The notes below the pieces were generated by a model. The model saw nothing but the letters and a program-made list of their open reading frames with translations, was not told the origin of the DNA and searched no databases. Positions 17,907 through 20,877 of a stretch of 64,000 bases of DNA are shown piece by piece. The position numbers and the translations under genes were made by a program. The DNA lies in contig DWWV01000023.1 of the NCBI GenBank assembly GCA_019119535.1, positions 4,655 through 68,654 on the forward strand. The letters are read 5' to 3'. The DNA comes from Candidatus Blautia merdigallinarum (GTDB lineage Bacteria; Bacillota; Clostridia; Lachnospirales; Lachnospiraceae). Numbering within the stretch: position 1 is the stretch's first letter; the number at the start of each line of letters is the position of its first letter.

Positions 17907-19274
17907 ATGAAGTGCGAAAGATGCGGAAAGGAACTTTCTGATATTGACTTATACTGCAGCAGATGCGGTAAGGCCGTTTTTCCAGAGTATATGGACGAGG
18001 AAGACATCTGGGCCTACTATAAGTCAGATGAAGAGCTGGAACAAATCTTAAAGGCAGAGAAAGAACAGGCTGGAGCTTCTCAGAAGAATGCTTCGGATGG
18101 AGAAACTTCGGAACCAGAAGAAAAAGAGAGAATTTCGGAACAGGAAGATTCTGAAGATGGGGTTTCTGAGATAAAGAGTGCTAAAGCAGAGGAATCTGAG
18201 TCTAAGGCTTTTGAACCAGAGGAGGCTGCGGCGAAGGATTCTGAGACAGAAAATATAGAGCAGGAAAATTCTGAAAGGGAAAATTCTGCCCTGAGTCCAG
18301 AGAATGGATTTTTGGAAGAGGATTTTCAGGCAGAAGACTCCGAAAGGGAGATTTCAGAAGAGGAGACTTCCCAAGAGGAAGTTTCTGGGGAAGATTTTCC
18401 CTCAGAAGAACTTACGGAAGAAGCAGGCCTGGAAGAACAAAGCTTTGTTCAGGAAATAGAGAGTCCGGAAGATAAAGTGTCTTCCTCAGATGAAGGAGAT
18501 CTGCCAGAGGAAACTCTGGAATCTCAAGAGACAATGGAGTTGGAATCAGGGTCTGACTTTGACGAGGAAGAGGACGAAGATGAGGATGAAGAAGAGGAAG
18601 AAGAGAAAGAACCGCTGACGCCGGAGAAGAAGAGAGCCAGACGATATACGGCTCTTCTGGCAGGGGTTTTTCTCCTTCTGTGTCTGGCAGCAGGTATCAT
18701 TCTGGGGATCCGCAGAATGAATCATCTGGAGACATTGGAAAGAGAGTATACTCAGAAACTGGAAGATAGAACCGAAACAGAGCCTACGGCTGCTGATACT
18801 GGAAATATCCGTCTCCTTTCAGAAGAAGCAGATCTTTCCCAGAATACAAAACTCCAGCCCGCATCTGCTCAGGCAGATTCCCAGAAACAGTCAGAGGAAG
18901 AAGACTATAGCGGAAGCCGTCTTATAGACGGAGATCCGGCAACTTCCTGGCAGGAAGGAGAAGAAGGCACCGGAGAGGGAAAAGGAGTTACCCTGACCCT
19001 GGACGGCAGTCATCAGATCCGTTATCTTGTTCTCTACCTTGGCAACTGGAAAAGTGACGAGCTGTGGAACTATAATGCCCGTCCCCAGTCCCTGGCTGTT
19101 CAGGTGGGAGAGGGAGAAGAGGAAGTCCTGGAATTTCCAGATGAGAAAAAAGTCTTTTACCTGGCACTTCAGGAACCGGTGGAGACTTCTGAGATAAAGA
19201 TACGGATACAGTCTTCTTATGAAGGTGAGAGATGGGAGGACAACTGTATCTCAGAAATAGAAGTTTATGAATGA
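17907..19274 (+). CDS. Membrane-anchored protein: N-terminal zinc ribbon, acidic low-complexity linker, one TM helix, C-terminal discoidin/F5-8 (NADase-type glycan-binding-like) domain
   Basis: CERC..CSRC; E/S/D-rich tract; hydrophobic ALLAGVFLLLCLAAGIILGI; RLIDGDPATSWQEG, NARP, CISEIEVY. Confidence 0.75.
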   Translation: MKCERCGKELSDIDLYCSRCGKAVFPEYMDEEDIWAYYKSDEELEQILKAEKEQAGASQKNASDGETSEPEEKERISEQEDSEDGVSEIKSAKAEESESKAFEPEEAAAKDSETENIEQENSERENSALSPENGFLEEDFQAEDSEREISEEETSQEEVSGEDFPSEELTEEAGLEEQSFVQEIESPEDKVSSSDEGDLPEETLESQETMELESGSDFDEEEDEDEDEEEEEEKEPLTPEKKRARRYTALLAGVFLLLCLAAGIILGIRRMNHLETLEREYTQKLEDRTETEPTAADTGNIRLLSEEADLSQNTKLQPASAQADSQKQSEEEDYSGSRLIDGDPATSWQEGEEGTGEGKGVTLTLDGSHQIRYLVLYLGNWKSDELWNYNARPQSLAVQVGEGEEEVLEFPDEKKVFYLALQEPVETSEIKIRIQSSYEGERWEDNCISEIEVYE

Positions 19275-19300
19275 TGCCCATTTTAAGGAATTGCTGTATA

Positions 19301-19370
19301 AAGAGCTGTCGCATGAAACCTATGGAGAATATTTATACCTGTGTTTTTATGCGGCAGCTCTTGGTATTTT
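19301..19370 (+). terminator. Long inverted repeat after the zinc-ribbon gene (probable terminator)
   Basis: AAGAGCTGTCGCATGAAAC (19301-19319) pairs with GTTTTTATGCGGCAGCTCTT (19343-19362); T-rich tail. Confidence 0.5.
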
Positions 19371-19377
19371 TCTGTGA

Positions 19378-19621
19378 ACGGTTATCATGGAAAATACTTG
19401 TATTATAACCGTAGCTTTTAGGTCTCTAGTACGGTTGTGATATAAGAAATTGGTTTTAAGCCGTAGTTTTATGGTCTACAGTACGGTTATATAAGAAAAA
19501 CCAGGTGTGCAACCGTAATAAACTGGCTAAAGGAACGGTTGTATAAGAGAATCCAGATTATGAAACCGTAATTGTATACGAAAAAGGACGGTTACATCAT
19601 CGGAAATGTATTTTGGACCGT
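19378..19621. repeat. Non-coding degenerate tandem array, period 52-53 bp, of alternating inverted hexamers ACGGTT / AACCGT
   Basis: ACGGTT at 19378, 19431, 19483, 19535, 19588. AACCGT (or one mismatch) at 19407, 19459, 19511, 19564, 19616. AACCGT-to-ACGGTT gap is always 18 nt. Confidence 0.9.
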
Positions 19622-19662
19622 TTTTCCGTTGAAAAATATAGTTTAGCCGAGAGGAGAAGGAA

Positions 19663-20445
19663 ATGACAAATCAGGAAATAATGAAGACTGCCATGGAGCA
19701 GTCTGGAGCAGATTTAAACTGTAAGGCAGAAGATTTTTTAAAAAAGGAACCGGTTGTGGTCAGCGGGGGTCTAGGACCAGGAGCCAAGAAATATTATCAG
19801 GAGCCGGTTTCTGCCAATTTGGTATCCTATGGAAATAATATTGTTGCTTCTGTGAAAGAAGAGTATCGGGAGCTTATATGGGAGTATATCCATAGATTTA
19901 CATTTTACCATTGTTTTGAAACACCTAATATGCACTGGCTGGAGGACAGACTCAGAAAAGAAGGACAGAGGGTCTGTTTTATGGCGGAATATTATCTGCC
20001 GGATGTGGAAAAGGTAAAGCCCCTTCCCTGCAGTTACTCCCTGAAAATTATACACAGAGAGGACTTTTGGGAGCTGTACAGGCCAGAATGGAGCAATGCT
20101 CTGTGCAGGGAAAGGAAACACCTGGATGTTCTTGGAGTAGGGGCATATGACGGCAAAAAGCTGGTTGGCCTGGCAGGATGCTCTGCTGACTGCGACAAGA
20201 TGTGGCAGATTGGCGTGGACGTATTGCCGGAATACCGCAGGGCAGGAATTGCCTCTGCACTGACCAGCAGACTGGCTGTTGAGATACTGGAGCGGGGCAA
20301 GGTGCCTTTTTACTGTTCTGCCTGGTCCAACATCCGCTCTGTGAGAAACGGGATCAAAAGCGGATTTATTCCTGCCTGGGTGGAGATGACGGTGAAACCG
20401 GCTAAGATTGTTCAGGATATGAATGAGATTACGCTGCTGTCTTAA
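19663..20445 (+). CDS. GNAT family N-acetyltransferase
   Basis: RBS GAGGAG. C-terminal GNAT fold WQIGVDVLPEYRRAGIASAL, NIRSVRNGIKSGF. Confidence 0.88.
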   Translation: MTNQEIMKTAMEQSGADLNCKAEDFLKKEPVVVSGGLGPGAKKYYQEPVSANLVSYGNNIVASVKEEYRELIWEYIHRFTFYHCFETPNMHWLEDRLRKEGQRVCFMAEYYLPDVEKVKPLPCSYSLKIIHREDFWELYRPEWSNALCRERKHLDVLGVGAYDGKKLVGLAGCSADCDKMWQIGVDVLPEYRRAGIASALTSRLAVEILERGKVPFYCSAWSNIRSVRNGIKSGFIPAWVEMTVKPAKIVQDMNEITLLS

Positions 20446-20457
20446 TGCGTTCCACAA

Positions 20458-20877
20458 CTAAAACTTAAATAAATTCAGCCCGATTTCTTCACTGTAAGCC
20501 CTGTCCACAGTTCCCTCAATGAGAGTTATGACCATTTCACAGGTGGCGCTGACCATAGCCTGGTTCAGATGACCACCGAAGACTTCTCCCTTATCATTTC
20601 CTGCGCTCATATGTAAATGGCAGTAAAATTCACCGTCCATAGTGTTGATAGTTCCGGTAAGAGATACGATTTCGAAACTGCCGCTGAAATGATTGGAATA
20701 ATATTTTTTCTCGTCAGTTTTAAAAACTCCTACAGTAAAATCATTGATGGCGCCCAAAGCCTGGATGCTTGCCAGCTTTATATTTTCTTTCAGAGCGATT
20801 TCTTTTACCTGTTCCAGGATTTCTTCTCCTTTATCGATTCTTGCGATCAAAGTGTTTCCAAATTTTCTGTATTCCAT
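20458..20877 (-). CDS. PPC-domain (DUF296) putative DNA-binding protein
   Basis: ARIDKGEEI, FEIVSLTGTI, CHLHMS, GGHL, TCEMVI. ATG 20877 follows GGAGG. Confidence 0.88.
   Translation of the reverse strand: MEYRKFGNTLIARIDKGEEILEQVKEIALKENIKLASIQALGAINDFTVGVFKTDEKKYYSNHFSGSFEIVSLTGTINTMDGEFYCHLHMSAGNDKGEVFGGHLNQAMVSATCEMVITLIEGTVDRAYSEEIGLNLFKF

Follow-up and report, generated by a model that had tools for sequence, protein, structure and literature searches.

A phased array of inverted hexamers in Candidatus Blautia merdigallinarum and its candidate partner, a nuclease-like protein family of Clostridia

Here we describe an array of short inverted motifs in a 64,000-nucleotide stretch of the genome of Candidatus Blautia merdigallinarum (GenBank assembly GCA_019119535.1, contig DWWV01000023.1, positions 4,655 to 68,654 of the forward strand), which as a whole is referred to as the window. 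In this array the hexamer ACGGTT and its reverse complement AACCGT alternate at fixed distances, and we believe that it probably serves as a double-stranded DNA scaffold on which a family of proteins of about 264 amino acids (aa) would bind cooperatively and on one face. Judged from its sequence, the window array is best read as a dispersed copy without a gene of its own, one of about 11 in this genome, whose cognate protein is unannotated. The pairing of such arrays with such genes is common in gut Clostridia, and searches of the literature for the hexamers, for interspersed repeats of Lachnospiraceae and for the defence candidate PDC-S68 found no description of it. More tentatively, and with slightly less than even confidence, we propose that these genes form a putative clostridial family of site-specific nuclease-fold proteins (at least 5,870 clusters at 50% identity), each with private phased arrays in the host chromosome, which would represent either a second, independently evolved partnership of the kind formed by repetitive extragenic palindromes (REP) and REP-associated tyrosine transposases (RAYT), or a new system of chromosomal architecture or self-marking.

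An earlier note, made from the letters of the window, had placed ACGGTT at 19378, 19431, 19483, 19535 and 19588, AACCGT at 19407, 19511 and 19564, and the variants AGCCGT at 19459 and GACCGT at 19616. All of these positions are correct, and the inner gap of 18 in four of four cases, the outer gap of 22-23 and the period of 52-53 bp were confirmed on the sequence. The spacing given in the note stands, but its choice of AACCGT-N18-ACGGTT as the unit does not, since the natural module is ACGGTT-N22/23-AACCGT, of which the window holds five:

19378..19621, + strand: the whole array, five modules of ACGGTT-N22/23-AACCGT with four 18-bp spacers between them, period 52-53 bp
19378..19412, + strand: module 1, ACGGTT-N23-AACCGT, with the A-run GGAAAAT at 19389-19395
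19431..19464, + strand: module 2, ACGGTT-N22-AGCCGT (a one-sided A>G change), with the A-run AAGAAA at 19444-19449
19483..19516, + strand: module 3, ACGGTT-N22-AACCGT, with the A-run AAGAAAAA at 19493-19500
19535..19569, + strand: module 4, ACGGTT-N23-AACCGT, with the A-run AAGAGAA at 19545-19551
19588..19621, + strand: module 5, terminal and degenerate, ACGGTT-N22-GACCGT
19413-19430, 19465-19482, 19517-19534 and 19570-19587, no strand: inter-module spacers of 18 bp each, length kept, sequence not

The A-runs (AAGAAA, AAGAAAAA, AAGAGAA, GGAAAAT and GGAAAT) lie on the + strand and begin 8-13 nt past each ACGGTT of the window, and the array was called '+' from these linker A-tracts according to the family logo described below (array a118, orient 0). 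The pattern ACGGTT-N20-26-AACCGT has three exact matches in the window compared with 0.00 in 100 shuffles, and AACCGT-N18-ACGGTT with at most one mismatch has four compared with 0.03 expected; the matches to both patterns all fall in the array. As the earlier note had stated, no open reading frame (ORF) runs across it (none of at least 60 aa), and Tandem Repeats Finder reported no repeat, so that the unit interiors have truly diverged, which the note had likewise recognized.

The window array is one member of a large family. Its own genome (G000; 3.08 Mb in 204 contigs) contains 22 exact AACCGT-N17-19-ACGGTT sites compared with none for the reversed control pattern, and these sites fall into the 11 or so arrays mentioned above, of 2-6 units each, on 11 contigs and all with a 52-53-bp period. 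An exact two-unit pattern retrieved 110 stretches from a collection of species-representative genomes, nearly all of them from Lachnospiraceae or its genera, the labels outside this family being one 'uncultured Firmicutes' and one 'Eubacterium sp.'; the NCBI labels of the carriers include Blautia, Mediterraneibacter, Pullilachnospira, Acetatifactor, 'Roseburia' metagenome-assembled genomes (MAGs), Eisenbergiella, Claveliimonas monacensis and Sellimonas catena. The same pattern had no match in IMG/VR, and a phage-borne element was rejected on this ground. The AACCGT type is found chiefly in a sub-clade of the window's genus, where 8-10 of 35 genomes in the GTDB sampling carry 19-35 matches each, and is nearly absent from 300 other genera of Lachnospiraceae. 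From Lachnospiraceae loci we extracted 122 multi-unit arrays with 2-12 units each, in which periods of 53 bp (367 cases) and 52 bp (114) prevail over those of 51 or 54 bp (15), and 552 of the 618 units have an inner gap of 18. The arrays in the complete genome of Sellimonas catena were too few to map orientation against replication. Further arrays, which the earlier note had proposed to look for, are thus present both in this genome and in the family, and the lack of other copies and of conservation, which it had named as the mark of a neutral origin, is clearly not what we see.

Conservation in these arrays is confined to the sites and their geometry. In a logo that was resolved by orientation and weighted per array, information is found only in AACCGT/ACGGTT, in the adjacent position 7 (A/T) and in an A4-5 tract at the linker centre with weaker A/T flanks; the linker carrying the tract measures 22-23 bp, and the 18-bp segment is almost devoid of information. 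The arrays therefore have an orientation, and the A-tracts of the window array lie on the + strand. A lone ACGGTT opens 68 of 111 arrays (61%) and a lone AACCGT closes 75 of 111 (68%), where 1.8% would be expected by chance, and these ends define ACGGTT-(A-tract linker)-AACCGT as the repeating module, with 18 bp between one module and the next. The hexamers depart from the consensus on one side at a time: at position 2 we counted 32 A-C, 25 G-T and 20 A-A pairs and no compensated pairs, and the variants at position 4, among 619 units, include C-A and T-G, with compensated pairs essentially absent. Base identity is therefore conserved and pairing is not, so that the check for compensatory pairing suggested in the earlier note came out against a base-paired structure. 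Units are alike within one array, whereas between loci nothing beyond hexamers and geometry is shared; this pattern suggests that units were duplicated locally in tandem and then diverged, with the sites under constraint.

Orthologous loci support this picture. In Candidatus Blautia ornithocaccae (L023) the same genes flank an array that is near-identical to that of the window, and in Candidatus Blautia pullistercoris (L082) the array consists of four full units and a lone half-site at each end, with different interiors. Two further genomes, G008 and G019, carry orthologous arrays of about 9-10 units upstream of the GNAT acetyltransferase gene (G019:C30 and G008:C205; L156 and L157), in which most units have AACCGT as the left half and a variant, ACGGTAGAAAAT, as the right half; the variant resembles the motif of the type B arrays described below, and these may be hybrid units. 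The orthologous locus of G028 holds a one-module vestige only, and the array on contig C128 of the window's genome has 3-4 units compared with about 7 in G008. The geometry is thus kept at the orthologous locus and across the 122 arrays with differing interiors, which bears out the view of the earlier note that selection acts on sites and spacing and that the array is no recent duplication. The 'string of single-gene cassettes' in which that note had placed the array carries no weight, since the same two genes flank it in several species.

We identified the candidate partner by clustering all ORFs within 1.5 kb of the arrays. An ORF of about 264 aa lies 26-142 bp downstream of an array at 15 loci in 15 assemblies, with the same relative orientation in 14 of 15, and in two of the 15 a second array follows the gene. 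The same array-then-gene order is found in G000 (C128), G008 (C300), G014 (C18) and G019 (C4) and in four metagenome contigs of human-gut Lachnospiraceae (P0020 loci; protein 73% identical), and at least 19 genomes show it in all. No other recurrent neighbour of the arrays was found, the next largest neighbour clusters being syntenic orthologues. We also observed that the P0020 contigs L145-L148, otherwise syntenic, carry four different defence-type islands upstream of array and gene (about 1-2480): a CBASS-like island (cyclic-oligonucleotide-based antiphage signalling system) with SAVED, Prok-E2 and JAB; a DEAD/MZB helicase with a D12 methyltransferase; SLFN/AlbA_2; and DUF6414. This hotspot of variable islands is separated from the array by a conserved segment of about 200 bp (2480-2690).

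The ~264-aa protein is called 'hypothetical' in every source that names it, and most sources give it no name. Its family comprises 5,870 clusters at 50% identity when matches with E up to 1e-3 are counted, and 1,254 with E up to 1e-30. An AlphaFold2 model built on a 133-sequence alignment reached a pLDDT of 96.9 and a pTM of 0.84 (a single-sequence run gave a pLDDT of 44) and consists of a long N-terminal helical hairpin, a beta-hairpin and a C-terminal alpha/beta domain. Comparison of the model with the Protein Data Bank (PDB) by Foldseek returned weak matches (best E 0.02, probability 0.98, TM 0.26/0.42), and the informative ones are all PD-(D/E)xK nuclease domains, namely those of DrdV, NucS/EndoMS, Bax1, Card1, BamHI, MunI and the R2 endonuclease. 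Members of the PD-(D/E)xK superfamily share an alpha-beta-beta-beta-alpha-beta core with conserved acidic catalytic residues. Together with the invariant residues S158, Y177, E178, D192, E207, H208, G210, Y217 and E244, these weak structural matches suggest that the C-terminal domain is PD-(D/E)xK nuclease-like, and the acidic and histidine residues among them hint that the protein may still be active as a nuclease. The motif ..PDF..(x14)..EH.G resembles Vsr/DUF559 by eye only, and membership in this EDxHD-type group was rejected, as neither PF03852 nor PF04480 matched and no Vsr/DUF559 structure was among the Foldseek or PDB matches. The C-terminal ~130 residues match the C-terminus of PADLOC PDC-S68 (E 4e-25) and PDC-S69, and the same domain occurs on plasmids fused to AAA ATPases or RecQ. 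Full-length homologues were absent from 72,556 plasmids and essentially absent from 50,697 phage records, where the sole match was one unannotated 4.2-kb fragment; beside the gene lie those for an ABC transporter, DegV and the like.

In the window's own genome, the gene that belongs to the AACCGT arrays (type A; C128:3429-4260, - strand) is split into ORFs of 76 and 186 aa by a 1-nt deletion (CCGGG-GAAAAG compared with CCGGGAGAAAAG) relative to an intact, near-identical copy (L108). This deletion stems either from an error of assembly or from recent pseudogenisation; if the loss is real, the window array may currently be an orphan. Two other observations concern a second type in this genome: one type-B-like array (GGTAGAAAT...CTACC, period 53) lies at C58:58400-58760, and a decayed type-B homologue of the nuclease-like gene, with internal stops, lies at C161:20478-20935, adjoining the same conserved gene and terminator that stand upstream of intact type-A or type-B genes in other species (L038, L142, L143).

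Protein and arrays co-occur and vary together. All eight same-genus genomes with at least three array matches have a closely related homologue; the full-length copies among these are 64-74% identical to the query, and G004 and G014 hold contig-end fragments only (49-84%). Of 53 other genomes searched, two have a close homologue, a copy in G028 (76% complete) and a 46-residue fragment in G026. In genomes whose best homologue is 51-54% identical there are no AACCGT arrays, and arrays of (G)TAGGTGG...GGCCTAC with a 52-53-bp period stand upstream of the gene instead. In G005 and G022 such TAGGTGG/GCCTAC arrays are dispersed over 3-4 contigs, and no match to the exact pattern was present in G025 and G032, which have the same gene type, or in four genomes without it. 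Type B, a 64%-identical paralogue that stands beside type A in G003 and G008, has arrays of CCGGTAGAAAT...CCTACRG with a period of 53 bp, a 32% homologue follows an array of GCATCG-N22-CGATGC with a period of 62 bp, and a 38% homologue follows one of CAGTCCTAC...GTCGGAC with a period of 64-65 bp. In a scan for positions that set specificity, the groups of types A, B and C proved heterogeneous.

A survey of 70 metagenome homologue loci with at least 200 nt of upstream sequence extended this series. In 59 of the 70, a strong periodic array lies directly upstream, in many cases with private inverted hexamers that include AATCAA, GCTGTA, CAACAG, AAGTCA, GGCGAT, TTTGAC, TATAGG and TACGGC, and with inner gaps of about 14-20 bp and outer gaps of about 20-27 bp that are similar across loci. 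The periods measure 51-56 bp at 46 loci (mode 53), 63-64 bp at 11 and 74 bp at one or two, and none falls at 57-62 or 65-73 bp. As about 53, 63 and 74 bp correspond to five, six and seven turns of B-DNA, this quantisation points to duplex DNA that carries proteins along one helical face, as opposed to RNA or single-stranded hairpins, and it is the strongest argument for a double-stranded DNA role. The reading as a cooperative protein-binding scaffold, which the earlier note had listed among its possibilities, is the best supported, now with a specific candidate protein in hand.

Physical binding, cooperativity, cleavage, the way in which arrays spread and any benefit to the cell are matters of inference, and we envisage the following mechanism. 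A symmetric oligomer of the protein, probably joined via the helical hairpin, would read both inverted hexamers of one module, whose linker may be bent by the central A-tract between them; A-tracts are a sequence class that bends DNA. Recurrence of the module every 52-53 bp, or five helical turns, would bring bound proteins onto one face and allow them to assemble cooperatively. The 'master' array upstream of the gene (C128 in G000) probably autoregulates the ~264-aa gene, and the dispersed arrays, the window one included, would provide extra cognate sites. Arrays would grow and shrink by tandem duplication and loss, with new loci rarely seeded, and protein and hexamers would co-diversify to give each gene lineage its private arrays.

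Several observations weigh against this interpretation. Co-occurrence within one genus is confounded by phylogeny and shared ancestry, and the analysis of 8-mers shared between gene and array is confounded by general divergence of the loci. Four distant homologues (L138, L140, L141 and G057) have no obvious upstream array. The inverted symmetry that is kept across types would also fit recognition of hairpins. The protein has no family match in Pfam (E up to 1), NCBIfam, PHROGs or the PDB sequences, and no Foldseek match reached an E of 0.001 or below. A search for an empty orthologous site or a target-site duplication found neither, only occupied sites, the G028 vestige and a non-syntenic GNAT gene in G033, so that no clean empty site shows the arrival of an array. 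Lastly, the type-A gene of G000 is frameshifted and its second-type copy is a pseudogene, yet the arrays persist, which makes the current function in Blautia merdigallinarum uncertain.

The genomic setting of the arrays is almost always intergenic, with 6 of 122 overlapping an ORF of at least 110 aa. Where both neighbours could be called (71 arrays), these are co-directional in 44 cases, convergent in 22 and divergent in 5, so that the arrays stand mostly at gene 3' ends, a distribution that by analogy resembles that of REP elements and bacterial interspersed mosaic elements (BIMEs). Relative to co-directional neighbours their orientation is mixed (27 compared with 17). In G000 the neighbours are housekeeping genes with no relation to one another (GH32, RqcH-like, FolC, a V-ATPase subunit, sortase and pilin, sigma factors and regulators); with unrelated neighbours and 22 convergent compared with only 5 divergent arrays, a simple promoter-operator array or regulon was rejected. 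The window array itself sits in a 388-bp gap with a + strand gene on either side:

17907..19274, + strand: upstream gene, 455-aa protein with a zinc ribbon and an F5/8-type-C / NADase_transloc-like domain, ending 104 bp before the array
19614..19642, + strand: weak sigma-70-like match TGGACC-17-TATAGT, overlapping the last half-site; a consensus match only
19663..20445, + strand: downstream gene, 260-aa GNAT acetyltransferase, starting 42 bp past the array

By its sequence, the sigma-70-like match is a possible promoter of the GNAT gene. A 45-aa ORF (19271-19408, + strand) enters the first module; it has a weak match to the C-terminus of DUF5717 that falls below the cut-off (E 0.0045) and is probably spurious or a gene remnant. 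As a separate observation, contigs with homologues of the gene (L149, L150, L151 and many metagenome loci) very often end in the array or just upstream of it, and the arrays seem to break short-read metagenome assemblies. Two other repeats of similar period were seen in G000: a small ORF with three tandem 17-aa repeats (AACGTACGAGDKPEEKP-like, 51-bp DNA period; C134:16030-16230) that encodes a cysteine-containing repeat peptide, and two 53-bp direct repeats, each with a hairpin (gacgagtgacggttctgactcgtc), upstream of a gene at C84:7850-7960, which are not of the AACCGT type.

We consider it unlikely that the arrays are architectural or regulatory sites of the host for another factor (curved DNA, insulators or roadblocks at gene ends, nucleoid sites) and that the nuclease-like gene merely carries one in its promoter. 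Retention at orthologous loci, the location mainly between co-directional or convergent genes, the phased A-tracts and the persistence of arrays in G000 despite its frameshifted partner gene would all suit such sites; however, the motif changes along with the lineage of the adjacent gene, no motif has its arrays in a genome that lacks the matching gene type, and no other neighbour gene recurs. Active copying by the nuclease, with the arrays as non-autonomous mobile DNA similar to miniature inverted-repeat transposable elements or REPINs (paired REP sequences) and conserved through competence for transposition, appears quite unlikely to us. In this case unit interiors should be related between loci as in transposed copies, which they are not, and the similarity of units within an array points to local tandem duplication; target-site duplications and empty sites are missing, and copy-out transposition by PD-(D/E)xK proteins alone is not known. 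Such copying would nevertheless agree with a single-copy partner gene with cognate dispersed repeats, with the coexistence of orthogonal types A and B in one genome (G003, G008), with contigs that often break at arrays, and with the absence of arrays from phages and plasmids, which implies vertical inheritance as in REPIN-RAYT systems.

Tandem RNA hairpins were also raised in the earlier note; we regard it as very unlikely that such hairpins (ACGGUU:AACCGU) are transcribed and act as stabilisers in 3' untranslated regions, as terminators or as a processed multi-hairpin RNA. The two halves are indeed perfect inverted repeats, the + strand folds better than shuffled sequences (z -4.6), and many arrays stand at gene 3' ends like mRNA-stabilising REP elements. 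Yet the stems would be just 6-8 bp long with loops of 14-23 nt, the hexamers commonly change on one side without compensation, the orientation to flanking genes is mixed, the periods match turns of B-DNA, and a terminator-like site was looked for and not found. A search of Rfam 15 (E up to 10) over window positions 18500-20500 gave no relevant match, and with compensated pairs essentially absent, a known structured RNA was rejected. Hardly credible, in our view, is a neutral decayed minisatellite or a degenerate mini-array resembling clustered regularly interspaced short palindromic repeats (CRISPR). CRISPR arrays have near-identical repeats, unique spacers of about 26-40 bp and cas genes nearby. 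The arrays described here are tandem and periodic with interiors that differ between arrays, but hexamers and spacing are kept across species in more than 120 arrays, and the orthologous loci effectively refute neutral decay. 'Repeat' and 'spacer' vary together and are both alike in young arrays, as expected from duplication and not from spacer acquisition; the 18-bp 'spacer' is too short, and the flanks encode the zinc-ribbon/F5-8C protein and the GNAT protein with no adjacent cas genes, so a CRISPR array was rejected.

If the pairing of arrays and proteins is true, a large clostridial protein family from gut and rumen gains its first functional handle in the form of a cognate DNA element, and dispersed intergenic repeats of Gram-positive gut bacteria gain a candidate partner; to date such partnerships of repeat and protein have been described chiefly for the REP/RAYT pairs of Proteobacteria. 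Periods of five, six and seven turns together with private hexamers lead to testable predictions on cooperative same-face DNA binding. The natural series of orthogonal protein-site pairs would then be a library of DNA readers with long split recognition sites, and specificity would diversify rapidly in this clostridial nuclease-fold family. In addition, arrays that break short-read Lachnospiraceae MAG assemblies and vary in unit number between species could serve as typing loci.

Among known systems, the REP/BIME (REPIN) elements and RAYT (TnpA-REP) proteins of Proteobacteria, in which a single-copy gene is flanked by cognate extragenic repeats, offer a close parallel (PMC3116915, PMC3337134, PMC5581495, PMC3686654). 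Both consist of a single-copy gene of nuclease or transposase type beside a cognate repeat with which it co-varies, have tens of extragenic copies mostly at gene 3' ends that include tandem clusters (the BIMEs), form orthogonal pairs within one genome, and are inherited vertically without occurring on phages or plasmids. However, RAYT is a HUH Y1 tyrosine transposase (IS200/IS605-like), whereas the array partner is PD-(D/E)xK-like. A REP is an imperfect palindrome of 20-40 bp that is conserved along its length and typically carries GTAG, in contrast to the arrays with their inverted half-sites of 6-7 bp, fixed gaps of 18 and 22-23 bp, central A-tract, phasing by helical turns and lack of hairpin covariation; a GTA(G/C) core is present in the arrays, and position 8 is not conserved. 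The hosts differ as well, Gram-positive Clostridia in one case and Proteobacteria in the other. RAYT-driven REP was rejected for G000, where the only Y1_Tnp match is a pseudogene with five in-frame stops (C182:2461-2796), away from the arrays.

Site arrays next to the gene of their binder are also known from parC/ParR of R1, tubC/TubR, the heptads of omega protein and iterons. Like plasmid centromeres, operators and iterons, the arrays stand directly upstream of the gene of the candidate binder, where cooperative, helically phased binding and autoregulation are likely and the specificity of protein and site would co-evolve rapidly. Unlike them, the gene has no ParA, ParM, TubZ or Rep nearby and encodes a nuclease fold, the arrays number about 11 to more than 30 per chromosome compared with one per replicon, and their period is 52-74 bp compared with 11-22 bp. 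A plasmid iteron or partition centromere was rejected on the basis of the ABC transporter and DegV neighbours, the array number in G000 and the lack of a full-length plasmid homologue, and the iteron, centromere and att readings of the earlier note find no support, there being about 11 arrays per genome and no Rep, Par or integrase partner. Integrons have one attC per gene cassette, with R''-L''...L'-R' sites and an intI integrase; an integron attC or cassette array was rejected because the tandem units have no ORFs between them and the flanking genes are syntenic across species, intI itself not having been searched for.

Mycobacterial interspersed repetitive units (MIRUs) are intergenic minisatellites of 46-101 bp, with direct repeats conserved along their length. 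The arrays share with MIRUs the dispersed intergenic location, tandem units of about 50 bp and a unit number that varies between strains; MIRUs differ in their frequent translational coupling to the genes around them and in having no known cognate protein, and they are unrelated to the arrays in sequence. Finally, the homologous C-terminal nuclease-like domain links the ~264-aa protein to PADLOC PDC-S68 and PDC-S69 and to the AAA-ATPase and helicase proteins. These are single-gene defence candidates of about 1,200 aa, or a 289-aa protein, with no reported repeat arrays, whereas the ~264-aa protein combines the nuclease-like domain with an N-terminal helical hairpin and is accompanied by cognate DNA arrays.

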